Assembly: GCA_963830365.1 (NCBI GenBank)
Contig: CAWHMU010000036.1
Location: 1-64,000 of the forward strand
DNA length: 64,000 nucleotides
Source of the DNA: an uncultured Chlamydiae bacterium
GTDB lineage: Bacteria; Chlamydiota; Chlamydiia; Chlamydiales; Parachlamydiaceae
Direction: 5' to 3'
Part shown: piece by piece, positions 1,823 to 62,980 of the stretch
Layout of the letters: each line of letters begins with the position of its first letter
Numbering within the stretch: position 1 is the stretch's first letter
Made by a program: the position numbers and the translations under genes
The notes under the pieces: model-generated
The model's input: the letters and a program-made list of their open reading frames with translations, nothing else
Told to the model about the DNA's origin: nothing
Databases searched by the model: none

Positions 1823-2923
1823 TTACACGTCATCCTGAAAAAAGTAATTCACCGGCGGTAGCAGACCCTCTGGCAGCGGTGGAATAAACGGTTCCGGCAG
1901 CAGCAGCATGGGGATGAGATAGAGGTCGGCAAAGATATTATATTTTTCAACGGTAGCCTGCAGGTATTGCACTCCCGAAGAGCCGCCGGTGCCGCTTTTC
2001 CAGCCGATCATTTTCTGCACCATCTGGCTATGGCGATAGCGCCACAGCGTGAACAGGGCGTTGACTTCCACTACCTCTGTCAAGAGCATATCGGGCAAAT
2101 GCAATAGGGGATGGTGGCGGTACAGGCGGATGAAAAGGGCGGCCATGAAGGCTTTATATGAAAAGCGACGTTGCCCTGTTTTCAGCAGCTCTTGATAGGG
2201 TGCGGCATTAAATATAATAGCGAAATTAGGGCGCAGTTCATCCAGTCTTTTGTAGAAGCCCTGTCTTTCTTCCTCGGTAAATTCTGGATTATTTTGGATA
2301 TGCGCTTTCTCTTGCTGCATCATCTGTTCAAAGGCCTCTCCATAGGCATCGGTAAAGCGATAGGCGCCCTTTTCCAAGAATGGCATACCCTCCAGCCATT
2401 TTTCAATGCATCCCAATAGAGAAGTGTGCTGTTCAGCCTCTTTCAAAGCCTCTTTATGTACACTTTTCAGGTCGGTATCATAAGGGCAGCGGGCATAAAG
2501 CATTCGTTCATCCCTTTTTAAGCCGAATTTGGTTTCGATCATGCGGAATTGGTAGCTTTGGAAGCCCGACATGGTGCCTAAATTGTCCCGGAAATTGAGG
2601 AATTCCAGCGGCGACATCGTCTCCAGTACTTCGAATTCCTGCAATAAGAGATGAAAGATTTTATTGATGCGCTGCAGGCGGATCAAGATGAGTTCCATAT
2701 CCTGTTGGGCTATGGGTGCCTGGAAGAGGGCGAAGATGGAATCCAGATCGGCAATAATTTGCTTAAACCACAATTCATACACCTGATGCACGATAATGAA
2801 AAAGAGCTCTTCATGTCGCGCCGCTCCTTTTTCGGCGCTCAATAGCTTTTGGGAGGAAAGGATTTTATCCAGCTGCAGATAGTCGCCGTAGACTTCATTT
2901 GGATGAGATCTGCCTTGCTCCAT
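1823..2923 (-). CDS. kynA: Tryptophan 2,3-dioxygenase (long form)
   Basis: YGDYLQLDKIL, HEELFFIIVHQVYELWFKQ, SGFQS, GTGGSSG motifs; ATG 2923 directly after HAAO stop. Confidence 0.95.
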   Translation of the reverse strand: MEQGRSHPNEVYGDYLQLDKILSSQKLLSAEKGAARHEELFFIIVHQVYELWFKQIIADLDSIFALFQAPIAQQDMELILIRLQRINKIFHLLLQEFEVLETMSPLEFLNFRDNLGTMSGFQSYQFRMIETKFGLKRDERMLYARCPYDTDLKSVHKEALKEAEQHTSLLGCIEKWLEGMPFLEKGAYRFTDAYGEAFEQMMQQEKAHIQNNPEFTEEERQGFYKRLDELRPNFAIIFNAAPYQELLKTGQRRFSYKAFMAALFIRLYRHHPLLHLPDMLLTEVVEVNALFTLWRYRHSQMVQKMIGWKSGTGGSSGVQYLQATVEKYNIFADLYLIPMLLLPEPFIPPLPEGLLPPVNYFFQDDV

Positions 2924-2924
2924 A

Positions 2925-3449
2925 TCAAGCTGCCTTTGTCGGCGGTTGCATGACATGGCCGCATTGTTGGCAGCGCCGCTTCTCTGGATCATCATAAAAA
3001 TGTTCAAATATTGCTGGCAGTTGTTCGACGATATCGGTCACCTCGGCATATTCTTCATACAGCAGGTGGTGGCATTTTTCACAATACCATTGGAAGCCAT
3101 CCAATTCGTTGGCCTGCCTTTTATGTTCGATCACCAGGCCGATGGTGTTGGCCGGCCGTTGCGGGGAGTGGGGCGTGCGGGAAGGCAGCAGATAAACCTC
3201 GCCTTCGTTGATTGGCACATCCACAGGCTGTCCATTGTCAATCATCTTTAAAACGATAGCGCCTTCGATCTGATAAAAAAACTCTTCCCCTTCGTTGACA
3301 TGGTAATCCTTGCGTGTGTTGGGACCCGCCACCACCATCACGATAGTGTCGGTATCCTGCCAGATCACCTTGTTGCCTACCGGCGGTTTCAATAGGGCGC
3401 GATTTGCGGCCACCCATTTCTTTAAATCCACTGCCGACCTTGGAATCAT
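2925..3449 (-). CDS. nbaC: 3-hydroxyanthranilate 3,4-dioxygenase
   Basis: LKPPVGNK, GPNTRKDYH, EEFFYQ, PHSPQR, two CxxC rubredoxin-like sites. Confidence 0.96.
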   Translation of the reverse strand: MIPRSAVDLKKWVAANRALLKPPVGNKVIWQDTDTIVMVVAGPNTRKDYHVNEGEEFFYQIEGAIVLKMIDNGQPVDVPINEGEVYLLPSRTPHSPQRPANTIGLVIEHKRQANELDGFQWYCEKCHHLLYEEYAEVTDIVEQLPAIFEHFYDDPEKRRCQQCGHVMQPPTKAA

Positions 3450-3552
3450 GGAACCCCCAATTTTAATGCAGCATAAAACACAAAAAATTAAGGTACAATA
3501 AATTATTTAATTTGATATTTTAACATTAACACCTTTTAAAAGATGACGCCCC

Positions 3553-4437
3553 ATGCATGAAATTATTAAAACACACTATGACATCCCAAGGAATATCATC
3601 GAAACGATCGTGTTGCGCGCGTTAACCGAAGATCTGGCGGCCGGCGATGTGACGTCCACCGCCTGCATCGATAGCGAGGCCGCCAGCCAGGCCAAGGCTG
3701 TCGCCCGCCAGCAGCTCATTGCCTGCGGCAGCGGGGTGGCAGCCTGTGTCTTTGCAATGATCGATCCAAAGCTGCACTTTGCCGTGCAGGCCGCTGACGG
3801 CACACCGCTTGAAACCGGCGGTGTTCTCTGGACAGTCTCCGGCAACACCCGGTCGATTCTGATGGGGGAGCGCGTGGCATTGAATTTTGTCCAGCACATG
3901 AGCGGCATCGCCAGCATGACAAGGGCCTATGTTATGGCCATTCCTGCCGGATATGACACGCGCATCACTGACACGCGCAAAACGACTCCCGGTCTGCGCC
4001 CGTTGGAGCGCTATGCCGTGCGCATCGGCGGCGGCTTTAACCACCGCGATAACCTCGGCAGTGCCATCCTTATCAAAGACAATCATATCTCAGCCTGTGG
4101 CAGCATCGAAAAGGCTATCGCGCGCGCCAAGCTTTTCGCCTCCCACACCTGCCGTATCGAATGTGAAGTGGAATCGCTTGGGCAGCTGCAAGCAGCCTTG
4201 GCGGCCGGCGTCGATATCGTCCTGTTAGACAATATGCCTGATGAGGCAGTTGTTGAAGCGGTGCGTTTGGCCAAAGGGCGGGCCGTGATCGAAGCTTCCG
4301 GCGGCATCACCCTGGGTAGGATTGGCGCGCTGGCTAAAGCCGGCGTCGAGATTATCTCGATAGGCGCCATCACACATTCCGCCCCGGCTGTCGACATCGG
4401 CCTCGACATGGACTTGGTTTGCACCACAGAGGCATAG
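3553..4437 (+). CDS. nadC: Quinolinate phosphoribosyltransferase
   Basis: DTRKTTPGLR, NHR, LIKDNH, LLDNM, EASGGI motifs. Confidence 0.97.
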   Translation: MHEIIKTHYDIPRNIIETIVLRALTEDLAAGDVTSTACIDSEAASQAKAVARQQLIACGSGVAACVFAMIDPKLHFAVQAADGTPLETGGVLWTVSGNTRSILMGERVALNFVQHMSGIASMTRAYVMAIPAGYDTRITDTRKTTPGLRPLERYAVRIGGGFNHRDNLGSAILIKDNHISACGSIEKAIARAKLFASHTCRIECEVESLGQLQAALAAGVDIVLLDNMPDEAVVEAVRLAKGRAVIEASGGITLGRIGALAKAGVEIISIGAITHSAPAVDIGLDMDLVCTTEA

Positions 4438-48111: not shown

Positions 48112-50331
48112 TCAAATGCTTTGGCGGGCCAGCATGTCGGCAAACAGGCCGCCTTGCTGAGCGAGCTCGGCGAAGGTGCCGCATTGCGCCACCTTGCCGC
48201 GGTCCAGTACATAGATGCGGTCGGCATGTTTTACCGCAGACAGTCGGTGGGCGACGATGATTCTTGTGGCCTTGAGCTTTTGCATATTCTGCATCACGAT
48301 TTGTTGGGTACGATTATCCAGGCCGCCCGTAGCTTCATCCCACAGCATGATCTTGGCCTTACTTAAAAAGGCGCCCGCCAGAAACAGGCGCTGGCGCTGT
48401 CCGCTTGAAATCGTCGTCCCTGCACTAGTCAGGACAGTATTTAGTCCCATGGGGAATTGTTGCAAATCGTTCTTAAATCCTGCCATCTCGACTGCCGCCA
48501 TGATTTCTTCCAGGGCATAAGGCTTTCCGCCGGTGATATTTTCGCGCATGGTGCCGTCCATCAGCTGGCTGTTTTGCAAGATGGTGCTGATCTGCCGGCG
48601 TACCGCTGGCAGATAAAGCGTAGCCAGGTCTTGTCCGTCATAATGAATTGCGCCCTGCTGGGGCGACTCAAAGCCGAGCAGCAGGCGGATGAGCGAGCTT
48701 TTGCCGCAGCCGGAGGGGCCGACGATGGCCACGAATTCACCCGGCGCGGCGCGGATGGAGATGTCGTCATGGATCAACGCACCCTTGTCATCATAGCGGA
48801 AGCTGACATGTTCGATATGGATGGCGCCGCTTAATGGTGGAGGGGTGATCTTGGCAGCACTGTTTTCCAGCGGTTCGTCCAGGATGACTTTGGCGTAGTG
48901 CCATAGGGCATAGGTGTTTGGCATTTGCAGCAGGGTGGCATTGAGATCGGCGAGGGCGACGGCGAAATTGACCAGGGCGATGTTAAAGGCCAGGTAGGCG
49001 CCGAGGCTGAGCATAGTTGAAGGGGAAGATGTGGCACCCACCCAGCCGATGACGACAAAGAAAATCACGAAATATTTCAGGCCGTCCAATATGATATCGA
49101 CGGCATGCAGGCGATTGGCGATGGTCCCCATCTGTAAATGCAGGCGCTGGTTGGCCATGGCATCGGCGGCCCAGAAACGGAAGATGCGCTCTTCGGCGCC
49201 GTGAGTGCGGATTTTGGAGAGGCCGATGATCATCTGGATGACTTTGCCGTTGATGATCCCGAACTGATAATTCATGGCGCGCTTTTTGATGGCGGCAAAG
49301 CCGTAGGCCGTCGCAGCCAGGCTAAAGAGCATAAGCCCCAGGGCGATGGCGCTTAGGGTAGGGCTGTAGTAAAACATGGCCACCAGATAAACGGTGGCAA
49401 AGATGGCATTGATAATTGTGCGGGCGGCATGGCCGGCTAAGCTGCGCCGGATCTCGGTGACGCATGAGAGGCGCTGGAACAGGTCGCCTACCGTGAACCT
49501 TCTGAAGAAGCGCATCGGCAGGTCGAGCAGGCGCTGCCATAAGGCCGCCTCCACATCGTGATTTAGATAGGTTTCTACTTTAAGCATGGCGTATTCCTTA
49601 ATGGCATTACAGGCGGCGATGCTTAGGAAAATCAGAGCCAGGCCAAGCAACAGCTGCATAAAGAGCTGTTTGTCCATTGACGGAATGATATGGTCGAATA
49701 AAATTTCGTTGGCAAAAGGTAGAAAAAGACTCAACACGCCTACCAACAAGCTTAGCATAAAGATAAACCAGAGATCATTTTTCCTGCCGTGCAGGCAGAA
49801 ATGCAGCATATCGCGGTGGCTCAATTTGTCTTGGGCGGGAAGCAGACGGTAAAATATGTTGGCGGTAGGGTCGAGCTTTTGGGCTAGTGCCGTATGGATT
49901 TTTTGCGGGGCAGGGGCTTCGGGATCGATCAGAGAATAGCCGCCGTTTGGGTCCGGGGACAAAACGACCGGCTTCAGGGGATTATCTTTAAAATAGCCAA
50001 GCAGGGGGCCGTGGTCCTCCAGCCACCAGTTTTTTGGCAGGGTGATGTCGCGATAGTTTACGTGCGATGCTTGGGCAATGGCATGCAGGCGTTCTGCCAG
50101 CGGCTGTGTGGTGGTGGATAGGGATGGAAATTGGAAATCGATATCCAGCTTAGCGCCCAGGATTTGACAAGCCCGCATGAGCGGTTCTGCGCCCATTGGT
50201 GCGTTTATAGGCGCCATTTCATCATCCAAGATGTTGCCGAACTCTTTCAGGGTGCTATCGAGCATGGCCCGGTCGCTTTGCCTGCGGAGCTGTGCTTGGC
50301 TGGCTTCATTTTCCTTTGCAGTCGGCGCCAC
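48112..50331 (-). CDS. NHLM-type bacteriocin ABC transporter, ATP-binding subunit (TIGR03797-like)
   Basis: WWLEDHGPLLG degenerate N-domain, TM domain, GPSGCGKS, ISSGQRQR, WDEAT. Confidence 0.88.
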   Translation of the reverse strand: MAPTAKENEASQAQLRRQSDRAMLDSTLKEFGNILDDEMAPINAPMGAEPLMRACQILGAKLDIDFQFPSLSTTTQPLAERLHAIAQASHVNYRDITLPKNWWLEDHGPLLGYFKDNPLKPVVLSPDPNGGYSLIDPEAPAPQKIHTALAQKLDPTANIFYRLLPAQDKLSHRDMLHFCLHGRKNDLWFIFMLSLLVGVLSLFLPFANEILFDHIIPSMDKQLFMQLLLGLALIFLSIAACNAIKEYAMLKVETYLNHDVEAALWQRLLDLPMRFFRRFTVGDLFQRLSCVTEIRRSLAGHAARTIINAIFATVYLVAMFYYSPTLSAIALGLMLFSLAATAYGFAAIKKRAMNYQFGIINGKVIQMIIGLSKIRTHGAEERIFRFWAADAMANQRLHLQMGTIANRLHAVDIILDGLKYFVIFFVVIGWVGATSSPSTMLSLGAYLAFNIALVNFAVALADLNATLLQMPNTYALWHYAKVILDEPLENSAAKITPPPLSGAIHIEHVSFRYDDKGALIHDDISIRAAPGEFVAIVGPSGCGKSSLIRLLLGFESPQQGAIHYDGQDLATLYLPAVRRQISTILQNSQLMDGTMRENITGGKPYALEEIMAAVEMAGFKNDLQQFPMGLNTVLTSAGTTISSGQRQRLFLAGAFLSKAKIMLWDEATGGLDNRTQQIVMQNMQKLKATRIIVAHRLSAVKHADRIYVLDRGKVAQCGTFAELAQQGGLFADMLARQSI

Positions 50332-50334
50332 GGC

Positions 50335-52518
50335 TTACTCCTGTTGTTCGCTCGTTACCAGTGCATGGTAGAGGGGGCAATGCTCCATTAGCCTGGCATG
50401 TGTGCCTTTGGCGATGATCTTGCCTAGGTCCAGCACAATGATTTCATCGCAATCGCGGATGCTGCTTAAGCGATGGGCGATCAAAAGCATGGCACTGCCG
50501 CTGTTGCGCAGATGCTGCATGATGGCATGCTCGGTAAAGGCATCAAGGGAATTGGTGCCTTCATCGAGGATCAGAATGGCAGGCTGCTTTAAGCCGGCTC
50601 TGGCAATCTCCAGGCGCTGCCGTTCCCCGCCGCTCAAATTGGCGCCATTCTCTTCAAGCATAAGCTCATAGCCGCCGGGTCTTGACATGATGGTGTCGTG
50701 CAGGCAGGCGCATTTAGCGGCCGCTATGACAGGCGGCAAAGGTATCGTTGGGTCAAGAAAGGTGAGGTTGTCTTTGATGCTGGCAGTGAAAATGAAGGGA
50801 TCGCTTTCGACCAGAGCCATGCTGTTGACAAATAGTTCGCGGGGTATAGCCTGCTGGCTTTTGCCGTCGAATAGCACTTCCCCTTCCCAAGGATGCAACA
50901 GTCCGGCGATAATCCTTGCCAGCGTCGATTTGCCGCTGCCAGAGGGGCCGACGAGTGCCACGCTTTTGCCGGCAGCCAGTGTCAATGAGATATCTTTGAG
51001 CATCGGTTCGTCGCAGCGGCTGTAGCCGAAAGTCACGTGGCGAATGTCGACCGCGCCGCTCAGTTTACTTGTCTGCTGAGGCCGTGCTTCCGGCGGTTTG
51101 AAGACGCTGTCGATGGGATAGCGCATCAGGTCATCCAGCCGCGCCATATCGACCTTTAGAAATTGCAGGCTCTGGTTCACGCCGGCCAGGCTGACCACGG
51201 GTTGGATCAGGCTGAACAGTAAAATCTGCACGGCGATGAACATCCCCACGGTCAGTTGACCATCGATGACGCGCCAACCGCCGACCGCGATGAAGATAAA
51301 GTAAGTCAAAGCTTGCAATAGCTGCGTGCATATGGTCAGGAAGATGTCCTTGCGCCCCACTGCCTGCAGCGCATTCAATAGTCTGGTATAATATGCCGCC
51401 CAGGTCTGGAAAAAGCGCCGTGTTGAGCCGCCGGCTTTTAGCATTTCTATATTTTCCAGCCCGCCGATGGCATAGGCAGTGCTGCGGGCTGAGTCCGACT
51501 GATAGCGTGCATACATGTCTGAGCGGGAGCTATAGACGCATTGCATCAGCAGGAGGTTGGCGGCCATCACCGACATAGCCACCAGGGCGATGGTATAATC
51601 GTAATAGAGGATCGCCACACCATAGCTGAAGGCAAACAGCACGCTTAAGACCAGCGTGATGACATCGTCGGCCAGGGCATGGTTGATCGATTCATTGAGA
51701 GTTAGGCGGTAGGCCACTTCACCTGGATAACGCTGCAGGTAAAATTCCATCGGCAGCCTAAGCATATGCCATAATGTCTCGCTGCCCAAAGCGACCGACA
51801 GGCGCGTTTTTAAGCGGTTGATGGCCTTGCCTTGCAGGAATATCAGCAACCCTTTGACAGCCATCACCAACAGCAATCCGGCCAGGATGCCGTTTTTCCA
51901 GTCCAGGTTTTGCGCTACCAGCACCCGGTCGATAAACACCTGCGTCAAGGCGGGAAAGGCCAAATTCGGCACGACCAGGCATAGGCCGATCAGGGCGGCA
52001 AAAAGTAGCGCGGCCTTGACGTTTTTCAGTCTATTGTAGATGGCCTCGATCACCCCTGGCGGCCGGCCGCTTTTTTTGAACTGCGTTCCGGGCTGCAGGG
52101 TGATGGCGATGCCGGTAAAGTCGCTGTCGAGCTCATCGTAGCTGATGCTGCGCGGCCCCGTGGCTGGATCGTTGAGGTATACATGCTTTTTGTCGAAACC
52201 TTCAAGGACCACAAAGTGTTCGAATTTCCAGAACAGGATGGCCGGCAGCGGCAGCTGATAGAGATCTTCCACCTCCAGACTGTAGCCGTCGGCCTGCAGC
52301 TGATAGCCTTCGGCGGCCTCGACGATATTTTTGGCGTTGCTGCCGTCGCGCGAGATGCCGCAGGCGATGCGCAGCTGTTCTATGGATAAAAATTTGCCAA
52401 AATGCGCCAAGATGATGGCTAGGCAGACGGCGCCGCATTCGGTGGCTTCGATCTGGATGCGTGTCGGCGTGCGCACGCGCCGGTAGGCGCTTGGCCGCGG
52501 GATGATATTCTCATTCAT
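50335..52518 (-). CDS. NHLM-type ABC transporter with C39 peptidase domain (TIGR03796-like)
   Basis: VRTPTRIQIEATECGA (catalytic Cys), EHFVVLEG (His), LNDPATG (Asp), SRDGS, GPSGSGKS, LSGGERQR. Confidence 0.93.
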   Translation of the reverse strand: MNENIIPRPSAYRRVRTPTRIQIEATECGAVCLAIILAHFGKFLSIEQLRIACGISRDGSNAKNIVEAAEGYQLQADGYSLEVEDLYQLPLPAILFWKFEHFVVLEGFDKKHVYLNDPATGPRSISYDELDSDFTGIAITLQPGTQFKKSGRPPGVIEAIYNRLKNVKAALLFAALIGLCLVVPNLAFPALTQVFIDRVLVAQNLDWKNGILAGLLLVMAVKGLLIFLQGKAINRLKTRLSVALGSETLWHMLRLPMEFYLQRYPGEVAYRLTLNESINHALADDVITLVLSVLFAFSYGVAILYYDYTIALVAMSVMAANLLLMQCVYSSRSDMYARYQSDSARSTAYAIGGLENIEMLKAGGSTRRFFQTWAAYYTRLLNALQAVGRKDIFLTICTQLLQALTYFIFIAVGGWRVIDGQLTVGMFIAVQILLFSLIQPVVSLAGVNQSLQFLKVDMARLDDLMRYPIDSVFKPPEARPQQTSKLSGAVDIRHVTFGYSRCDEPMLKDISLTLAAGKSVALVGPSGSGKSTLARIIAGLLHPWEGEVLFDGKSQQAIPRELFVNSMALVESDPFIFTASIKDNLTFLDPTIPLPPVIAAAKCACLHDTIMSRPGGYELMLEENGANLSGGERQRLEIARAGLKQPAILILDEGTNSLDAFTEHAIMQHLRNSGSAMLLIAHRLSSIRDCDEIIVLDLGKIIAKGTHARLMEHCPLYHALVTSEQQE

Positions 52519-53431
52519 CTTTCACACTCTCGAGTTTCAAACTCTCCAGTGGCAGCATGTAATAGAGCGGCCGGATGCGGTGGATGGTCGCCTGGACTGT
52601 GCCGACGGTACCGGTTGTCAGGGGGGATGGCAGGGACTTGCCCGATGTCAGGCGATAGTCATGGGTATGCGGATCGATATCCAGCTCGATGGTAGCTTCA
52701 ATCACGGCCTCATCGCCAGGCGCCAGATATTCCACCAGTTCCTTATTGTAGATCTGCTTTTCCAGGCCGGCTTGGGGGATGGCAAAGCCCGATACCTCGC
52801 TGACTTTTCCCTGCAGGTAGCCGTATTCTTGGGTATCAATGGTGGAAACGGCGACGTAGGCGGCAGTCCCCACGGCCAGGCGCTTTCCCTGTGCTAACGG
52901 GAAATAGGCGTAGACGCGGTATGGGGCGTGGCCTGCATTGCTGTATTCCAGCCATACCACCGGGCTGCCGGGCGTCAGTGTCTCCCCTTCGCCGGCCAGT
53001 AGTTCCAATACCTTGCCGTCGATGGGACTTGTGAGCCGATGCAGCGGCATTTGCCGTTCGGGATCGGCCATCTCGGCCATCAGCTGGCCGGCTTTAACCT
53101 CTTGGCCGGGTTTGACGGTGATATTTTGCATGAGACCACCGACGGGCGTGTTTATGGTCAGCAGGCGTCCCTTTTGGTTCATGACGATCCCCCTGCCGTG
53201 TACGGTGACGGGCAGGGAGCCAAAAACAGACCATCCGATGAGACCGCCAAGCAGCATGATCAGGCATAGCAGCGCAATCCACATGCGAGGAGTCACTACC
53301 ACAAGCAGGGCGTCCAGCTGCACAGGATGGGAAAGGCGTTCCAAAGGTCCTGGCCGAAATAGGGACGAAGCTGTTCCTGCGGCCTCTTCGGATGTGGGGC
53401 CGGGGGGTGATTTTTCGGTCATTGTGAGCAT
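52511..53431 (-). CDS. NHLM-type secretion adaptor (TIGR03794-like), short form
   Basis: LFRPGPLERLSHPVQLDALL, TM helix, GRGIV, SPIDGKV, QEYGYLQGKVSEVS. Confidence 0.87.
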   Translation of the reverse strand: MLTMTEKSPPGPTSEEAAGTASSLFRPGPLERLSHPVQLDALLVVVTPRMWIALLCLIMLLGGLIGWSVFGSLPVTVHGRGIVMNQKGRLLTINTPVGGLMQNITVKPGQEVKAGQLMAEMADPERQMPLHRLTSPIDGKVLELLAGEGETLTPGSPVVWLEYSNAGHAPYRVYAYFPLAQGKRLAVGTAAYVAVSTIDTQEYGYLQGKVSEVSGFAIPQAGLEKQIYNKELVEYLAPGDEAVIEATIELDIDPHTHDYRLTSGKSLPSPLTTGTVGTVQATIHRIRPLYYMLPLESLKLESVKDE

Positions 53432-53459
53432 GCCTTATCTAGGTTTCACCATTTAGGTT

Positions 53460-53630
53460 TCACCCCTTTGTCGGCGTCTGCGCAGGCGAGGTCTCCCGCG
53501 TGGCAGGCAACTTCGGCTTGCTTTGGCGGGCAGGGGGTTTTGGGGGGCCGTATGTATTCCTGGTAGGATATCCCCCTACCACTTGCAATAGTTGAGCTTT
53601 GGTCAGCGGCTGTTTTTGTTTTTTAGGCAT
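53460..53630 (-). CDS. Double-glycine leader precursor peptide A (56 aa; not in ORF track)
   Basis: GGAGG RBS; MPKKQKQPLTKAQLLQVVGG|YPTRNTYGPPKPPARQSKPKLPATRETSPAQTPTKG*. Confidence 0.85.
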   Translation of the reverse strand: MPKKQKQPLTKAQLLQVVGGYPTRNTYGPPKPPARQSKPKLPATRETSPAQTPTKG

Positions 53631-53732
53631 ATATCCTCCAAGCTTAAGTTCATCAACTGGGCCTATACTGGAATATACAAGATGTTTTATTATAATATAT
53701 ATAATTTTAAAAAAGCAGGCGATTTTGGACTT

Positions 53733-53915
53733 TTAAATAACCGGTCGAGGAATGGGATGGTTGTTTAGGAGGTTTTTGGGATTTAGCGATGACGATCCGA
53801 GAGGAATGCCGTAGGAAGGATTGGGTTGATGGGGCGAACGGGTCGGCGAGCATGCTCCCCCTTTGACATACATCAGTTGTTTTTTGGTCAGCGGCGGCTT
53901 TTCATCGTTAAACAT
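53733..53915 (-). CDS. Double-glycine leader precursor peptide B (60 aa)
   Basis: GGAGAG RBS; MFNDEKPPLTKKQLMYVKGG|ACSPTRSPHQPNPSYGIPLGSSSLNPKNLLNNHPIPRPVI*. Confidence 0.85.
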   Translation of the reverse strand: MFNDEKPPLTKKQLMYVKGGACSPTRSPHQPNPSYGIPLGSSSLNPKNLLNNHPIPRPVI

Positions 53916-53995
53916 GCAAGCTCTCCAGCTAAAATTAACAGAGGCCGTTGCCACTTAATTATATAGTAAAGTTATTTATTTAACTAATGTTTGTA

Positions 53996-54157
53996 TATAC
54001 CACACGCGGCTACGTTTGGCATTTTTCGGCTGCGCCAAAGCCCCGAGGTTTAACAATCGAAAGTGACCCAATATTCCAATATGGGGTCACTTTCGATCGT
54101 TAAACCTCGGGACTTTCGCGTTGCCGAAAATCGCCAAACCTAGCCGCGTGTGGTATA
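53996..54157. mobile_element. 162-bp TATAC-ended near-perfect palindrome
   Basis: tataccacacgcggcta.gtttggc...cccgaggtttaac.atcgaaagtgaccc / gggtcactttcgat.gttaaacctcggg...gccaaac.tagccgcgtgtggtata. Confidence 0.85.
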
Positions 54158-54177
54158 GTTGCCTTGTGCTGCCGCCC

Positions 54178-55398
54178 TTACTTATTGATGATGACGATGA
54201 CGGTGCATAGGGTGCCGGTGGGAAGGTCGGGCGGCGGCAGGGAGCTCATCCAATAGCCGGGTGTCCACCATTTCTTGGACCACTTATAGCCCTTGGTGAC
54301 TGGATCGATATCGGGATCGATGACGGCTTCGATGACGGCTTTATCCCCTGGGACGAGGAGGTTGACGAGTTCTTTGTTATAAAGGATTTTGGTGATGCTA
54401 TCGCGCGAGACGGGATAATCGGTGACTTCGGCCACTTTGCCCAGCAGCACGCCGTAGTATTTAGTGTCGGCCGAATAGACCACCATGACGGCCCTTTGCC
54501 CGACGACGACGTGCTTGTTCTGTTCCATAGGCAGGTAGGCATAGATGCGGTCGGGAGCATTTTTCTCGCTACGCCCTTCCATCAAGAGTAAATTGGAGCC
54601 GCGTTTGACGATTTCCCCTTCGTTGGCCATCAGTTCAAGCACACGTCCATCCCAGGGGCTCTTCACTTTGTAATATTTCGCTTGCTGCTCAAGCAGTCTT
54701 TTCAGTTCCAGGTTTTGGGTGAGGTCGCGCTCTTTATTCTTCAGCTCCTCCGAACGGTAGCCTTTAAGCAGGTTGAAATGCAGGTTGGCAATTGACACCT
54801 GGGTGGTTTCTCTTTCGATTTTAGCGGACGACAATTTGTCTTCGGCATCGCGTACGACGGCAGGGCTGATCAGCCCAAGCTCGAATAAATGCTTACGCCG
54901 GGTCACCTCAGCTTCCAGATCGGGGATTTTTTTGTTCAGCAGCTGGACATTGAATTTTTTGGCCAGCATCTCTCTTTTAAGGGCCTTTAGCTGTGCCGCT
55001 CCTTCCTGGCTGATGTCATGCTTAAACTTCTCTAAATCAAGTGTCAAATTCTCCACTTTCAGCTTGGCAGCCGACAGCTTGATTTCGTAGTCGTGATCTA
55101 AAATATCAACCACCAGCTGGTCTTCTTTGACCTCGTCCCCCGGGCTGACGAAAATTTTTTTAACAATCCCGTCCACTCTGGTATTGATGGTGAAAAGCCG
55201 CCCCTTGGCATTCAGGATAATGCCTTTGCCCACGACTTTCTCCGGCTGGAAATAATCATCAATCTCGTAGTAGGCAAGGCTTGTCAGGCAGACCAGGATG
55301 ATGACGATCCACATCTTAGGGGAAAGGCGCTGATAAAATCTTTTTTTGGGGGGCTCAAATGCCGGCTGCTGGGCTGGAGATGGGGGATTTGTTGTCAT
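54178..55398 (-). CDS. Second NHLM/HlyD-type secretion adaptor, full-length coiled coil
   Basis: TM helix, GKGII..KGRLFTINT, long heptad region, SPWDGRVLEL, YYGVLLGKVAEV; clear paralogue of 52511-53431. Confidence 0.87.
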   Translation of the reverse strand: MTTNPPSPAQQPAFEPPKKRFYQRLSPKMWIVIILVCLTSLAYYEIDDYFQPEKVVGKGIILNAKGRLFTINTRVDGIVKKIFVSPGDEVKEDQLVVDILDHDYEIKLSAAKLKVENLTLDLEKFKHDISQEGAAQLKALKREMLAKKFNVQLLNKKIPDLEAEVTRRKHLFELGLISPAVVRDAEDKLSSAKIERETTQVSIANLHFNLLKGYRSEELKNKERDLTQNLELKRLLEQQAKYYKVKSPWDGRVLELMANEGEIVKRGSNLLLMEGRSEKNAPDRIYAYLPMEQNKHVVVGQRAVMVVYSADTKYYGVLLGKVAEVTDYPVSRDSITKILYNKELVNLLVPGDKAVIEAVIDPDIDPVTKGYKWSKKWWTPGYWMSSLPPPDLPTGTLCTVIVIINK

Positions 55399-55440
55399 AG
55401 GGCATCTGCCTTTAATAAACGATTAATTTGTATTTATTAC

Positions 55441-57375
55441 CTAATCACAACTCTCTGCTACATTTTCTGGCCGTCCTGAGCCTATCTCCGGCAGCGAGGT
55501 GATATCCATGACTTCAATGCAATCGCTATTTTCCCCCTGCCAGAATAGTGTAGCGGTCAGAAAACGGATCTGGCCGATGTTCTGCATGTACTTTTTACGG
55601 AAATCGTTGCGCTGCAACAGGGACGTGGTCAGGTTTTCTTCAAAACTCAGCAGATCAAAGAGGGAAATGAAGCCCGCCTGCAGTTTGACGACGCCTTCGG
55701 CAAACAATAAGCGGTTTAGGCGCACATTTTGTTCGGCTTCCTTTAATTGGGCAGATAGCACGATTTGACTAGATAGGGCTGCAGGTAAGATCGTGAGGGC
55801 TTGCTGCATCAACAGCTGCGTGGACAGGATGGCTTGGGCATATTGCGCCTTCCTTTGCTGCAGCACGCCCATCGCGCCGTCGTTATACAGCGGCATGGCG
55901 ATATTGATGCCAAGCGACCAATTTGTTTGACGCTGATGCATCTCAAGGGGCGAAAGCAAGGGTTTGCCGGCTTCGCCAGTTTCAAAATTCGGCATGGTGA
56001 CTTGGCCTGTGACATTGAGTGTGGGCAGACGGTCGTTATTGGCGCCTTTTAACAGGAAATATATTTGCTTTTGGCGCAAGGTAGAGGCTTGGATGTCATA
56101 GCGGTGCCTGATCGAGTATTCAAGTAAATATGGGAATTGAGTTTGGAACCACTCGACATCGAGCGGTGGCAGCGGGAAGTCATCGGTTAAATATAAAACC
56201 TCATCCTTAAAGTCTGTCACTGAGACATCGCCCATGACAAATTCCAATTGTTGGATGGTGGAAAAAAGAAATTGCTGCGCCTCCAGCAGGCTGATTTGCT
56301 GCTTGACGATCTTCTGCTGGGGCTGGTGGATGTCAGTGCGGGCCAGCAATGAATTTTTGATCAGTTGCTTGATATTTTCGGTTAGTTCCCTCAGGCGTCT
56401 CAAACCCTCTTCCTGGATGCCAACGGCTTTTTGGGCAGCTACGGCTTCCCAATAGGCCGTGGTGGTGCTGAAGATGTTTTGGCTGACAGCATGGAAGTCG
56501 TCATAGTACCTGGCATAAAGTTCCATGCGGGCGGCTTTTTCCTGCATCCAATTTACACCGTTTAAAAAGCCGCGCAACAGCGGTTGCTGTACCAAAAAGG
56601 AAACCGAGCCGACATTGTTGTTTACTGTTGCCGGTGAATTGAGGGGGTTATGCAGCCTGTCGACCTGGGCGCTGACGGCAAAGGCCGTGCCTGGACGGGT
56701 GAGGGTGGTGGCGGAGAGGGTGGCAAGCGTTTCATTTCCATTGAGCTTTGTTTTTATAGGCACCGAGGCTCTTTGCAAATCGTCTTGGAAGAGATAGGTA
56801 TTGGTGCCGACGACATTATAATCGAAGGGGGAGGCCGCGCTGCGCAATACGCCGGCTTGCACGTTGATGCTGAGTTGTGAAATTTCCAGCGAAATCTGGT
56901 TCTCAAGTGCATATACAAGCGCTTCATTGAGCGAGAATGGCCGTCCTTTGGGATCTGTGCCGGGCATCATGATGAATGGTGTGTGCGGAAGTTCGGCTTC
57001 AAGTTCGGCTACCGTCAAGTCAGAAAGGTCTGGGAGGGCATCGTTTTCCTTTTCGAGGACTTCGAGGGAGTGGAGAAACTGTTTGCCAAGCAAAGGGTTT
57101 TTTGGCGGCACATCAGCCTGTTTTTTTGGCTGTGCCTGTGCCGGGGATGGAGGCGCAACCTTGCCCTCTTCCCGCATGAGATAGGCTACGAGTTCATCAT
57201 CTTCGGCAGACGCACCGAGCGTATGACTGGCAGCCGGCATCTCGGCAGGGGGTGCTAATACCCCGCTTGCCATAGCTTGAGCCGAAGGCGCAAGCTTATC
57301 ACTAACGGCAGTAGTTTCGGCCGCGGCCAGCTGATTGAGGGCAATAAATGTCAAAATGCAAAGCAGGGGTCTCAT
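55441..57375 (-). CDS. TolC-family outer-membrane efflux protein
   Basis: Signal peptide, SLNEALVYALENQ, VQQPLLRGF, AYWE, LPTLNV, IAMPLYN, AGFISLFDLL. Confidence 0.88.
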   Translation of the reverse strand: MRPLLCILTFIALNQLAAAETTAVSDKLAPSAQAMASGVLAPPAEMPAASHTLGASAEDDELVAYLMREEGKVAPPSPAQAQPKKQADVPPKNPLLGKQFLHSLEVLEKENDALPDLSDLTVAELEAELPHTPFIMMPGTDPKGRPFSLNEALVYALENQISLEISQLSINVQAGVLRSAASPFDYNVVGTNTYLFQDDLQRASVPIKTKLNGNETLATLSATTLTRPGTAFAVSAQVDRLHNPLNSPATVNNNVGSVSFLVQQPLLRGFLNGVNWMQEKAARMELYARYYDDFHAVSQNIFSTTTAYWEAVAAQKAVGIQEEGLRRLRELTENIKQLIKNSLLARTDIHQPQQKIVKQQISLLEAQQFLFSTIQQLEFVMGDVSVTDFKDEVLYLTDDFPLPPLDVEWFQTQFPYLLEYSIRHRYDIQASTLRQKQIYFLLKGANNDRLPTLNVTGQVTMPNFETGEAGKPLLSPLEMHQRQTNWSLGINIAMPLYNDGAMGVLQQRKAQYAQAILSTQLLMQQALTILPAALSSQIVLSAQLKEAEQNVRLNRLLFAEGVVKLQAGFISLFDLLSFEENLTTSLLQRNDFRKKYMQNIGQIRFLTATLFWQGENSDCIEVMDITSLPEIGSGRPENVAESCD

Positions 57376-57483
57376 GTATAGTATAACCAACAAGTTGCCG
57401 GATAGAAATAGTCCAGGGCTTAAATGTAAGTCAAATCTATACTTGAGAAATCAGAAGGTTTCAAGTTTTTTTTTGCCTGCCGG

Positions 57484-59783: not shown

Positions 59784-60330
59784 GGTTCATCGCACAATTG
59801 CGTGCCTCCCCATATGTAAACTAATGGAGGATGTTAAATAAATCATACATAATGGCAAATTGCGCGTTCGATCCTGTGAAGGAAGGATTTGAGTTGGCAC
59901 TGCCATACAAGAGATAGGGCACAAGCCATGAGAACATTTTTACAGCCTCGATAGAGGCGGAAGCATGTAGCCACATGCGTCAGCGTGTGGTAATCGCATG
60001 TTTAGAAACAAAGCCGTGAATACGGCGGCAGCAATGACTAAAGGATAGTATATACTATAATAATTGCATCTAATTCAGCTTCCATCGAAATTGCTGTCGC
60101 CGTATTCACGGCTCTCTTTATACTACATTTTATTCCATAGGTTGACACCTATGGCTACATGCTTCCGCCTCTATCGAGGCTAACTAGACCTTCTGTGCTA
60201 GAATGCCGATTTGTTTCAAAGAGAACCTACAAATAGATCATTACTTCTCATATTTCAACCAGCAATTACTAAGGCTTTTTGACGAATCATCGGCGGTATT
60301 TTTGCAACTCCCTCATTTGTGCGATGAACC
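59784..60330. mobile_element. MITE with 8-bp TSD aatctttt carrying nested REP-like inverted repeats
   Basis: ggttcatcgcacaa / ttgtgcgatgaacc; aatctttt at 59776-59783 and 60331-60338. Confidence 0.88.
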
Positions 60331-60423
60331 AATCTTTTTCATAAAAATAGGCTGGTTGGTTTTATCCTGTTTGTAAAAAACAAAGTATATTATAATAAAA
60401 CAAGAGATACGGCAGGAGGTTTT

Positions 60424-60555
60424 ATGAAGAAAATAGACAAAAAACCGCTGACTAAAACACAACTGGCACAGGTCGCCGCCGCCCGCAGGGAAAGTCCGAG
60501 TTTGGATAAACGTTATACCGATGAATCCGGCGGCAGAAGAATCATTAAAAGGTAG
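60424..60555 (+). CDS. Precursor-like peptide C (43 aa; not in ORF track), same leader but ending AA
   Basis: AGGAGG RBS; MKKIDKKPLTKTQLAQVAAA|RRESPSLDKRYTDESGGRRIIKR*. Confidence 0.75.
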   Translation: MKKIDKKPLTKTQLAQVAAARRESPSLDKRYTDESGGRRIIKR

Positions 60556-60561
60556 GCTATT

Positions 60562-60724
60562 TATACTGCAGCCGGCATCAACATTCGATTTATGGACGCA
60601 TCTTTTCTCGCCGAAATGTCGTTTCAAAAGCGAGCCTACAAATATGTATGTCACGCTTTCGAAACGACATTTCGGCGAAAAAATCTACATCCATAAATCG
60701 AATGTTGATGCCGGCTGCAGTATA
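60562..60724. mobile_element. Near-perfect palindromic element flanked by TA, inserted in a terminator
   Basis: TA-tactgcagccggcatcaacattcgatttatgga ... tccataaatcgaatgttgatgccggctgcagta-TA. Confidence 0.85.
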
Positions 60725-60868
60725 ACAGTAAATAGCCTTTTTTATTCTCTGTGTCTCTGTATCTCTGTGGTGAATTTCTTTGCCTGCCACAATGATCAAG
60801 TCTGATTTTTCATTTATAACGGCAACCATTTTTGAATTCGGGTACGGGCTCCCATTGAGCCTGTGTTG

Positions 60869-62980
60869 CTATTTGGCTGCCTTTTCGGCCTCGATGGCGA
60901 TGCGGAAGCCGGTATAAGCATCGGTATGTTCGGGCAAAAGGCCAAGCCTTTCGCTGACACGCACGCCATCGGCCAGGCTGTCATAGCAGCCGCCTTTCAC
61001 GACCTTCAGCGTGCCGCCGTCAGGTCCTTGTGGATCTGTATCCGACATTTTGGCGTAATAACTGTCATCATACCAATCGGCAACCCATTCCCACACGTTG
61101 CCGCTCATATCGAAGGCGCCATAAGGGCTTTTAGCTAGGTGCGTGAGCTGCTGTTTGCTGTGGCCTGCCGTCAGGGGAAGGGCGTTTATGCCATTATAGA
61201 AGCCGACAGGCGTGGTCAACACACGGAAATATGGCAGCGGTCGGTCGTCGTCTTTGTAATTGGCCCAGGTGCGGTCGATGGCATCGCTGCCGAAGCCATA
61301 GCGGTATTTTTTCAAGGGCGTGCCCGCCTTTTCAGGCTCCATGGCGGCGGCTTTTTCCCATTCGGCTTCAGTAGGCAGGCGGGCCTTACGGTCGGCACAA
61401 TAGGCCATGGCGCCATACCAGGACACGTTGATCACAGGGTAGGAGTCTTTGCCTGGCAGCGGCACGAATACCGGACTTTCCATACTTTGCATTTGGGCCG
61501 TGATCTGGCTATAGGGATCGGCGATAAAAGTCTTAAAAAGCAGACGTCCGCTCATATCAACCACCTGGCCGCGGTTGTCGGCCTCTTCTACAAACGAGAT
61601 GGTGCCGGCTTTAAGAGCTTGGTTCAGCCAGGTGGCATATTGGATGTTGGTGACTTCATAGATGCCGATGGCAAAAGCGCTGATGGTTACGGTTTTAGCA
61701 GGCAGCTTATTGGCAGTAGTTTCTGTGGTGATATCGCCCATGAGGACTTTGCCGGCGGGGACAGTGGCGGTCTGTTCGATGGGCAGGTAGGTGGCTTGGA
61801 TGTTTTTTTCCTGTTCCGCCTCTATCACCACCGTCTGTGGGGCCGGCGTCTGGTAATTTGGCACTTTATCAAAAGTGATGATATAACGATCGGCAGGGGG
61901 AGGTGTCAGCTGGGTGTATTTGCCGGAAAAATGTCCGATGATATCTTCATGTGCGGCCGTGAATTTGCTTAAGGTGAACCCCCCCGAGGCCACATTGGTG
62001 GTGACGATGAGTTTTCTTGGTTTTATAGCAGGGGGCGTATTTTCGCTGCCGAAGACGAGGTTGATGTCCGCTGACATCAACGCGCGCACATTGATGTCGG
62101 TGGGGTCTGGCGGAGTGCGCTTTAAATCGCTGCCTGCACCGCTTTCAGGTGGTGTGAGGGTGAGGCGATAGCGCCCTTCCGGCAGGGTAAAGGCTTTGCT
62201 GCCTCCGATGATTTCGGCTTGCGAGGTCTGCTGCCGCCCGCCGAGCTCTTGGATGGCGACATGGCTGTGTTCGACATTGGTATTGATAGTCACTTTGCCG
62301 GCGATCTGGAAGGGGGCTTTGAGTTCTTTGTTTTCCTGGGAATTTAAGTTGAAACGCATCTCGGCCGGCGGGATGTAATAGTCTGGTTCGCTGGTGGAAA
62401 AGGCCAGTGCATAGCTGCCGCTAGGCAGGTCTGAAAAGCGATATTCACGCCCTTCCCCTTTCCATACCTGCGACGATTTTGTCGAGCGCAAAAGAAAAGT
62501 GGCCGCGGGGATATTGGCGACGATATGTATTGAGGATAGTTTTGATGCCAGACGAAAGAGAGGGGTCAGGATGAGATTTTCGCCGCGATGCAGCACGATT
62601 TTCTGCGCGGGTGCAGCTTCATAAGCCGGCGGCAGGCGATAGAAAATTTCGTATGCCCCTGGCGGCAGCGGCTTGCTCTTCCAACGGATCTGCCCCTGGT
62701 TGGCGTTAAGCTTTAACGAAAAGGCGCGGGCGGTTTCGGGTTTGATGGCAATTTCGATGGTGTTGCCTTCTGGCAGGTCCGTTTGAATGGTGATGAAGCT
62801 TGGGATATGTGGGATGACCGGCCTCACTGGTCGGTGATAGTCATATCTGGGATAGCCAGACTGATATTGCTGGATAATGACCGTTGACATTTCGGCGTCA
62901 TCAACGGCACGTGCACCCGCCAAGGTGGGCATAGCTCCCAAAAATGCTACCAGAATGGTGACTAAAGATGCCAGATACAT
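60869..62980 (-). CDS. Exported protein with beta-sandwich (PEGA-like) repeats and C-terminal FGE-sulfatase/SUMF1 domain
   Basis: YEVTNIQY, PVINVSWYGA..YC, RLPTEAEWEKAA, DMSGNVWEW, KGG, GFR. Confidence 0.9.
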   Translation of the reverse strand: MYLASLVTILVAFLGAMPTLAGARAVDDAEMSTVIIQQYQSGYPRYDYHRPVRPVIPHIPSFITIQTDLPEGNTIEIAIKPETARAFSLKLNANQGQIRWKSKPLPPGAYEIFYRLPPAYEAAPAQKIVLHRGENLILTPLFRLASKLSSIHIVANIPAATFLLRSTKSSQVWKGEGREYRFSDLPSGSYALAFSTSEPDYYIPPAEMRFNLNSQENKELKAPFQIAGKVTINTNVEHSHVAIQELGGRQQTSQAEIIGGSKAFTLPEGRYRLTLTPPESGAGSDLKRTPPDPTDINVRALMSADINLVFGSENTPPAIKPRKLIVTTNVASGGFTLSKFTAAHEDIIGHFSGKYTQLTPPPADRYIITFDKVPNYQTPAPQTVVIEAEQEKNIQATYLPIEQTATVPAGKVLMGDITTETTANKLPAKTVTISAFAIGIYEVTNIQYATWLNQALKAGTISFVEEADNRGQVVDMSGRLLFKTFIADPYSQITAQMQSMESPVFVPLPGKDSYPVINVSWYGAMAYCADRKARLPTEAEWEKAAAMEPEKAGTPLKKYRYGFGSDAIDRTWANYKDDDRPLPYFRVLTTPVGFYNGINALPLTAGHSKQQLTHLAKSPYGAFDMSGNVWEWVADWYDDSYYAKMSDTDPQGPDGGTLKVVKGGCYDSLADGVRVSERLGLLPEHTDAYTGFRIAIEAEKAAK

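Follow-up and report, generated by a model that had tools for sequence, protein, structure and literature searches.

A putative NHLM-type exporter of short-leader, unmodified peptides in a genome of the Parachlamydiaceae

Introduction

What does a peptide exporter of the NHLM type carry in a chlamydia when no peptide-modifying enzyme is encoded beside it? The question is raised by a locus within a 64,000-nucleotide stretch of DNA, hereafter the window (G000:C36:1-64000), which belongs to the 82% complete assembly (2.73 Mb, 48 contigs) of an uncultured bacterium of the family Parachlamydiaceae. G-numbers denote genomes of the phylum, G000 being the window's own; C-numbers denote contigs and L-numbers loci in relatives. 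A first-pass annotation, made from the letters of the window, had taken the organism for a probable chlamydia. The genome is chlamydia-like in that it encodes three full-length nucleotide transporters and yields two OmcB-like matches, both under the cut-off. Sequence comparisons suggest that the locus probably directs the leader-cleaving export of small unmodified peptides through an NHLM-type exporter.

The export locus and its four candidate precursors

The locus and the precursors assigned to it consist of the following genes:

48112-50331, minus strand: second ATP-binding cassette (ABC) subunit without peptidase, TIGR03797-like, short form of 739 residues (708.1 against a cut-off of 709.4)
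50335-52518, minus strand: C39 peptidase-ABC transporter (TIGR03796, 867.5 against a cut-off of 853.3; PF03412 Peptidase_C39)
52511-53431, minus strand: short adaptor of 306 residues with membrane anchor, lipoyl halves and barrel (TIGR03794, 176.8, above the cut-off of 156.2)
53460-53630, minus strand: peptide A precursor of 56 residues, a 20-residue Gly-Gly leader and a 36-residue core
53733-53915, minus strand: peptide B precursor of 60 residues, a 20-residue Gly-Gly leader and a 40-residue core
54178-55398, minus strand: long HlyD-type adaptor of 406 residues (TIGR03794, 120.8, below the cut-off of 156.2)
55441-57393, minus strand: TolC-family outer-membrane channel (Pfam OEP, 78.8 bits; TIGR01844, E 3.7e-16, under the cut-off)
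60424-60555, plus strand: peptide C precursor of 43 residues, a 20-residue leader ending in Ala-Ala and a 23-residue basic core, beyond the interval first annotated
G000:C28:14257-14415, on an unlinked contig: peptide D precursor, same leader type, ending in Gly-Gly, from a six-frame motif search

The first-pass annotation had placed all seven minus-strand open reading frames (ORFs) correctly. Only the start of the TolC gene needs amending: position 57375 is an in-frame ATG, whereas the ORF itself reaches 57393 and begins with TTG. The assignment to the NHLM-type type I peptide exporters is backed by family matches and by motifs. Checked against the TIGR03794, TIGR03796, TIGR03797 and Peptidase_C39 profiles, the C39-ABC transporter and the short adaptor scored over cut-off; TIGR03797 was by far the best match of the second ABC subunit, covering the full profile at 1.3 bits under the cut-off. 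Second ABC subunits of relatives come in forms of 690-750 and of 940-1010 residues. Walker A, signature and Walker B motifs are found in both ABC proteins. The C39 domain, the only one in the assembly, retains the catalytic residues reported earlier as intact, here located as Cys28, His101 and Asp117, together with the oxyanion residue Gln22. These four align with Gln21, Cys27, His101 and Asp117 of LahT, a transporter that serves lanthipeptide precursors. The closest solved structure to the domain is that of LahT147 (6MPZ, E 3.8e-39).

The 20-residue Gly-Gly leaders of peptides A and B had been recognized in the first reading; C and D had been overlooked, and both turned up in a six-frame search for the leader motif. 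All four leaders carry Leu, Leu and Val at positions -12, -7 and -4. Over 60 nucleotides the leader DNA of A matches that of B at 70% identity, while their cores are unrelated, and both genes are preceded by purine-rich ribosome-binding sites and AT-rich DNA. Translated in six frames, the genome has three occurrences of the pattern PLTK-x-QL-x2-V where 0.01 would be expected, a figure that flatters, the pattern having been derived from these very peptides. Scoring with a matrix built from 30 leaders of other genomes, which had themselves been chosen by a similar pattern and so do not provide a blind test, gave 19.9 for D, 13.4 for A and 12.0 for C; of the distinct ORFs that 39,370 candidate starts define, these rank first, fourth and seventh. 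Five long ORFs also matched the matrix, none of them cargo-like. Among the NCBIfam leader models, none matched A, B or C at E 0.05; D matched TIGR01847 at 14.9 against 15.7. An exact-sequence look-up in a public protein set returned A and D as singleton clusters, with A called as a gene, and did not find B or C.

The four cores are short (23-40 residues, 2.8-4.3 kDa) and hydrophilic, with a grand average of hydropathy (GRAVY) of -0.6 to -1.9. Core A is rich in Pro, Lys and Arg (3.9 kDa, net charge +6, no Cys) and core B is Pro-rich (4.3 kDa, net +3, one Cys), Pro making up 22-25% of the two; core C has a net charge of +4 and no Cys, and core D a net charge of 0 and two Cys. The calculated masses of cores A, B, C and D are about 3920, 4272, 2776 and 3827 Da. 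Lists of ORFs of at least 40-45 residues and the A/B spacers showed no gene for a small membrane protein that could confer immunity next to any of the four peptides.

Two upstream elements accompany peptides A and C:

53683-53719, minus strand: AT-rich element upstream of peptide A, a putative promoter of 37 nucleotides, 78% like 60366-60402
60366-60402, plus strand: upstream element of peptide C, common to peptide A

The 15-nucleotide core of this shared element occurs at these two sites only in the assembly. The element was not among the 20 sites returned by a sigma-70 scan (12.3 expected).

Proposed leader recognition by the C39 domain

The first-pass annotation had held short leaders to be unusual for a transporter of this kind. 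That view does not stand: according to the accessible text on LahT, the enzyme reads Leu-12, Leu-7 and Val-4 within the last 13 residues of the leader only, cuts short-leader precursors and tolerates Lys at -5 and -8 (PMC6363468). Since nothing beyond those 13 residues is read, leaders of 20 residues are no anomaly for this C39 clade. A model of the C39 domain in complex with peptide A scored 0.70, the best control reaching 0.01; the mark for complex scores was attained by 116 of 157 solved pairs and 2 of 215 mismatched ones, with runs agreeing in at least 77% of contacts and a partner predicted local distance difference test (pLDDT) value of at least 50. In the model, residues 9, 14 and 17 of peptide A occupy the C39 groove and the cut site lies at Cys28 and His101. 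The weight of this result is limited because a similar complex (6MPZ) has already been solved, and the model may show likeness more than binding.

Proposed export route

From what is known of the family, the precursors of A to D would dock to the C39 domain through the last 13 residues of their leaders, by way of positions -12, -7 and -4. Cys28 would then cut after Gly-Gly, or Ala-Ala, removing the 20-residue leaders of A and B and those of the unlinked C and D. The two ABC proteins are expected, again by family precedent, to pair, and the unmodified cores of 2.8-4.3 kDa would leave through them, the long adaptor and TolC. Only the long adaptor could reach TolC; its hairpin-less copy (see below) may be a second inner-membrane subunit or else a decaying duplicate. 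The cores would be released into the inclusion or the host cytoplasm.

Modifying enzymes and other cargo in the genome

The first-pass annotation had seen no maturase in the window, and the search of the whole assembly for YcaO, LanM and peptide radical-SAM maturases and for NHLP and Nif11 precursors was likewise empty within its 82% coverage. YcaO, LanC, NHLP, Nif11, PqqD and MNIO profiles found no match in G000. The LanC and NHLP searches stayed silent in controls, yet they work, since both match in relatives (LanC in 15 of 72 genomes of the family, NHLP in 37 of 69 exporter-positive genomes). YcaO, SagB, LanB and LanC proteins of relatives, used as tblastn or hidden Markov model (HMM) queries, found nothing in G000, and NHLP and Nif11 queries gave one tblastn match at E 0.022. 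A peptide radical-SAM maturase was rejected, all seven radical-SAM proteins of the genome being housekeeping enzymes (MtaB, HemW, RimO, LipA, two RlmN and one EpmB-like). A sulfotransferase search returned only a 33-residue match below cut-off. RTX proteins were rejected as cargo, no ORF in G000 having two or more RTX nonamers. Of the earlier proposal that unmodified peptides are exported, the part concerning short-leader cargo appears likely and no maturase was found, while "unmodified" rests on absence from an 82% complete assembly.

The exporter and its cargo across the phylum

The first-pass annotation had described the transporter trio as normally accompanied by NHLP or Nif11 precursors and maturases. 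Across the phylum the exporter proved common and often lacked YcaO. TIGR03796 matched in 66 of 400 genomes scored, 45 of them over cut-off (one further genome was unscored), and the window's C39-ABC protein found matches in 13 of 73 family genomes. Among 69 exporter-positive genomes, 16 had NHLP and YcaO, 21 NHLP only, 5 YcaO only and 27 neither. One of the five, the YcaO of G035, was rejected as a maturase, being of the housekeeping OsmC-YcaO type. NHLPs, present in 37 of the 69 genomes, were often unlinked to the exporter, and among 11 other family genomes tested only one had an NHLP.

We read 75 loci over up to 20 kb each, leaving out the four weakest TIGR03796 matches. Nine had a YcaO-like gene within the stretch, and for some examples the presence of NHLP or Nif11 precursors was borne out. 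The neighbourhood pattern missed some NHLPs that the genome search found, so that a locus marked in the tree as having none should not be taken as free of cargo. Leaders of 15-17 residues were found beside the exporter in six other genomes (G034, G018, G030, G263, G161 and G186) and unlinked to it in three (G009, G238 and G280). G161, G186 and G238, which are 96%, 99% and 92% complete, have both the exporter and peptides with short leaders and lack YcaO, NHLP and LanC. In a FastTree phylogeny of 71 C39-ABC proteins, from which five fragmented loci were omitted, the protein of the window clusters with those of G034 and G035 (L003 and L016) with a Shimodaira-Hasegawa-like (SH-like) support of 100, and each of these two transporters is adjoined by a non-NHLP Gly-Gly ORF. 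Other short-leader loci fall in separate clades.

Beyond the phylum set, a scan of contigs of named genomes gave five distant loci at 37-43% identity and no named chlamydial relative; metagenome scans returned nothing with the adaptor alignment and 47 loci with that of the C39-ABC protein, the best full-length one at 43%. None of the 34 distant loci read (31 of the 47 metagenomic ones and three from named genomes) was a close relative, and their scoring peptides were mostly of the long-leader type. Co-occurrence of the leader alignment with the exporter (7 of 13 exporter-positive against 4 of 60 negative genomes) was rejected as a test, 6 of the 7 having supplied rows of the model.

Several loci deserve mention in their own right. 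L003:11169-11333 and L013:14917-15075, from two genera, share a Cys-free core of 37 residues with 16 identities, their transporters lying in different clades. L138:366-2691 (G009:C20), on a contig of 10 kb with neither enzyme nor transporter, holds six paralogous peptides in tandem; they have short leaders and cores that are rich in Gly, Lys and Ala and free of Cys. Doubled NHLP domains characterize five tandem precursors of about 200 residues at L014:14654-17973 (G046) and similar ones in G284, which has 27 NHLP matches genome-wide and no YcaO. At L087:8237-11993 (G007:C51) an NHLP match adjoins a LanB dehydratase, and the 17-kb stretch contains no LanC. A leader type of 53-63 residues appears at L199, L208 (G040), L053 and L057; the one tested matched no NHLP or Nif11 model, and one copy in G040 sits beside two large ORFs. 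Eight loci (L006, L007, L010, L017, L039, L050, L056 and L070) pair the exporter with a cyclic nucleotide (cNMP)-binding protein that is absent from the window's locus.

Possible functions of the exported cores

Function is the weakest step of the explanation proposed here. If the cores are exported, an intracellular target in competing bacteria is the slightly favoured, tentative choice with somewhat less than an even chance, by analogy with known peptides; the Pro-rich cores presumably recall proline-rich antimicrobial peptides. A pore-forming class II bacteriocin was rejected, the cores being hydrophilic with no hydrophobic stretch. Pore formation is unlikely because, in addition, three of the four cores are cationic, two are Pro-rich and none has a small membrane immunity gene adjacent to it.

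Export granted, the chances are about equal that the cores are not antibacterials at all and instead serve as chlamydial cell-cell signals or as short-motif effectors in the host. Taken singly, a signalling role is somewhat unlikely and a host-directed one more so. The low hydropathy of the cores and the element shared upstream of A and C fit such roles, as does the PxxPxR-type stretch in core A, which we take to resemble an SH3 ligand and which is common by chance in Pro-rich sequence. The missing immunity gene points the same way, class II microcins usually having one adjacent in the available description (PMC12219008), and a precedent exists in RaxX, a host-hormone mimic that is cleaved after Gly-Gly and exported by an ABC transporter that contains a peptidase (PCAT) (10.1101/442517, as far as its accessible text goes). 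Against this, the genes adjoining the locus showed neither a receptor nor a two-component system, peptides released in the inclusion must still cross the inclusion membrane, and in relatives the cargo of this exporter includes NHLP/TOMM (thiazole/oxazole-modified microcin) precursors and Gly-rich, microcin-like peptides.

Evidence against the export of unmodified peptides

A number of observations weigh against the export of unmodified peptides by this locus. Peptide B scores only 5.3 with the leader matrix, under the listing threshold, and the leader of peptide C ends in Ala-Ala, not Gly-Gly, an ending frequent in chlamydial NHLP precursors. In codon usage A and B stay close to neutral, at 0.02 and -0.01, where long genes lie at 0.09-0.18. 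A search of 5.8 billion clusters, made for peptide A alone, returned only A itself, and its conservation cannot be shown. The cores offer Ser/Thr in A, B and C and Cys in B and D, and an assembly that is 82% complete does not prove the absence of a maturase. In relatives, the closest genome, G034, has an unlinked TOMM-type YcaO with SagB and no Gly-Gly precursor seen beside them. In G009, two short Gly-Gly-leader peptides with C-terminal Cys/Ser/Thr flank LanC and LanB, from which it follows that such leaders can accompany modification. Finally, LanC occurs in 6 of 12 other exporter-positive family genomes against 9 of 60 exporter-negative ones, kin that are not independent.

Most of the latter observations would be accounted for if A to D were precursors of peptides that are synthesized ribosomally and then modified post-translationally (RiPPs), modified in trans by an unlinked enzyme (a TOMM synthetase, LanBC or an unrecognized one) encoded in the missing part of the assembly and then exported; the two Cys of core D would suit such a fate. 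This we consider improbable. Cores A and C have no Cys, and the six Cys-free peptides of G009, which bear the same leader, share their 10-kb contig with no enzyme. Near-complete G161, G186 and G238 lack YcaO, NHLP and LanC, the three families searched for there. Among eight further LanC loci, three have precursors of their own with FDLD-like leaders, against one, in G263, where a Gly-Gly peptide lies beside a LanC-like fragment; four show no clear precursor. LanB and/or LanC genes are frequent in the family (L137 and L190-L195, from G009, G018, G030, G004 and G031; LanC in the 15 of 72 genomes given above), and the core of one FDLD-like-leader precursor presumably recalls epidermin.

The two adaptors and the question of decay

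In alignments the long adaptor retains the alpha-helical insert and, compared with its relatives, is missing the C-terminal tail and some of the N-terminal motif. The short adaptor has lost the insert in comparison with both L003 and the long adaptor, and thereby has no alpha-hairpin. In its AlphaFold2 model (pLDDT 88) residues 48-70 form a membrane helix, and strands 117-122 and 131-134 are joined with no hairpin between them. In the adaptor tree the two proteins are sisters (SH-like support 86) placed beside the single adaptor of G034 (96). This placement suggests that the adaptor gene was duplicated locally, with the peptide genes now lying between its two copies. Relatives, too, include loci with two adaptors and adaptors without a hairpin.

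The complementary losses in the two adaptors raise the prospect of a decaying locus, in which one copy lost its hairpin after duplication and the small ORFs are functionless, drifting leader remnants. Long terminal branches in the trees, the absence of a homologue of core A and broken exporter copies in relatives such as G031 agree with this view. Its chance is nonetheless slim: none of the five transport ORFs is interrupted and the catalytic and ATPase motifs are in place, the three recognition residues are kept in four leaders despite diverged cores, and hairpin-less adaptors of 250-290 residues are common in intact chlamydial loci. It is very doubtful, too, that the true cargo is an NHLP or Nif11 precursor or a large protein encoded elsewhere, with the small ORFs as bystanders: NHLPs of exporter-positive genomes are often unlinked and distant cargo could be missing from the incomplete assembly, but neither NHLP nor Nif11 was found in G000, only 1 of the 11 other family genomes tested has an NHLP, and A and B sit within the exporter gene cluster.

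One repeat lies inside the locus:

53996-54157, no strand assigned: palindrome with 80-nucleotide arms, lying between the long adaptor and peptide B and dispersed as a repeat in the genome

The arms of this palindrome of about 160 bp are 89% complementary, and it recurs at 22 loci on 15 contigs. It may separate transcripts. Two other long-palindrome families are present in the genome, represented in the window at 59790-60200 (110 loci) and 60555-60740 (5 loci). Peptide C has a palindromic repeat on either side, and the 59790-60200 family is also found near peptide D.

Relation to known systems

The locus has the three families (TIGR03794, TIGR03796 and TIGR03797, the last of them 1.3 bits under its cut-off) in the order of the NHLM export cassette of Haft et al. 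(2010), which according to that paper follows the precursor more closely than it follows any tailoring enzyme (PMC2887384). It differs from that cassette in its dedicated TolC and duplicated adaptor, and from NHLM/NHLP RiPP systems in its 20-residue leaders and in that no NHLP or Nif11 leader and no TOMM or LanM enzyme was found. With LahT of Lachnospiraceae C6A11 (6MPZ) it has the catalytic triad in common, and its leaders fit the hydrophobic code at -12, -7 and -4 (PMC6363468, in the part available); they are basic, whereas LahT substrates are acidic, and the present system is Gram-negative with TolC while that of LahT is Gram-positive.

The nearest functional parallels are the class IIa microcins and bacteroidetocins, which the available portion of one account describes as unmodified peptides with short double-glycine signals, exported by a PCAT, a membrane fusion protein and TolC, as proposed here (PMC12219008). 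By the same account those systems rely on a single PCAT and are usually accompanied by a neighbouring membrane immunity gene, in contrast to the two-ABC cassette of the window, beside which none was seen; and their cores measure about 5-10 kDa, against 2.8-4.3 kDa, hydrophilic, here. Xanthomonas RaxX, exported by the PCAT RaxB, is likewise a small Gly-Gly-cleaved peptide of a host-associated bacterium, tyrosine-sulfated according to the accessible text (10.1101/442517); G000 has only the short sub-cut-off sulfotransferase match mentioned above.

The first-pass annotation did not know chlamydiae as makers of bacteriocin-type peptides. RiPP clusters of the phylum are already in print: RiPP-like, linear azole-containing peptide (LAP), lanthipeptide and proteusin-type clusters have been published for environmental chlamydiae (PMC9666466 with its Data S10; PMC13229535), and lanthipeptide clusters of Parachlamydiaceae appear in Data S10. 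An exporter of the window's type and short-leader unmodified cargo are not described in the accessible parts of these antiSMASH surveys. A literature search, with most subscription papers outside it, found nothing on short-leader cargo of an NHLM exporter in chlamydiae. What seems new is the cargo, hydrophilic, mostly cationic (A and B Pro-rich) and without an immunity gene, and, so it appears, the local duplication of the adaptor with one copy hairpin-less.

By what means certain chlamydiae of amoebae hold back co-infecting bacteria is described as unresolved in one study (PMC6520448), and secondary metabolites have been suggested (PMC9666466). The locus family is a source of short candidate peptides that can be synthesized; a link to the protective symbionts is conjectural. 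Cluster mining centred on enzymes likely misses such peptides because no modifying enzyme marks them. The NHLM cassette is also found, inside a single phylum, with long NHLP leaders, with Nif11 leaders and with leaders of 15-20 residues, a natural series for the study of leader recognition. As a speculation to which we give a small chance, environmental chlamydiae may have repurposed a RiPP exporter as a second route, independent of type III secretion, for small, unmodified and fast-evolving effectors aimed at the eukaryotic host or at co-infecting bacteria, with any gene bearing a 15-20-residue leader, wherever it lies in the genome, serving as cargo and the adaptor having split in this lineage into one subunit with a hairpin and one without.

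Other observations

A 703-residue protein with a C-terminal FGE-sulfatase-like domain (60869-62980) adjoins peptide C in the window. Genes for tryptophan 2,3-dioxygenase, 3-hydroxyanthranilate dioxygenase and quinolinate phosphoribosyltransferase lie together at 1823-4437 and constitute a kynurenine route to NAD. Elsewhere in the phylum, L141:6705-7873 (G419:C68) holds two Gly/Ala-rich double-glycine peptides of 80 residues with replication- and partition-like genes, in a genome without an NHLM exporter and on a contig that may not belong to the bin.

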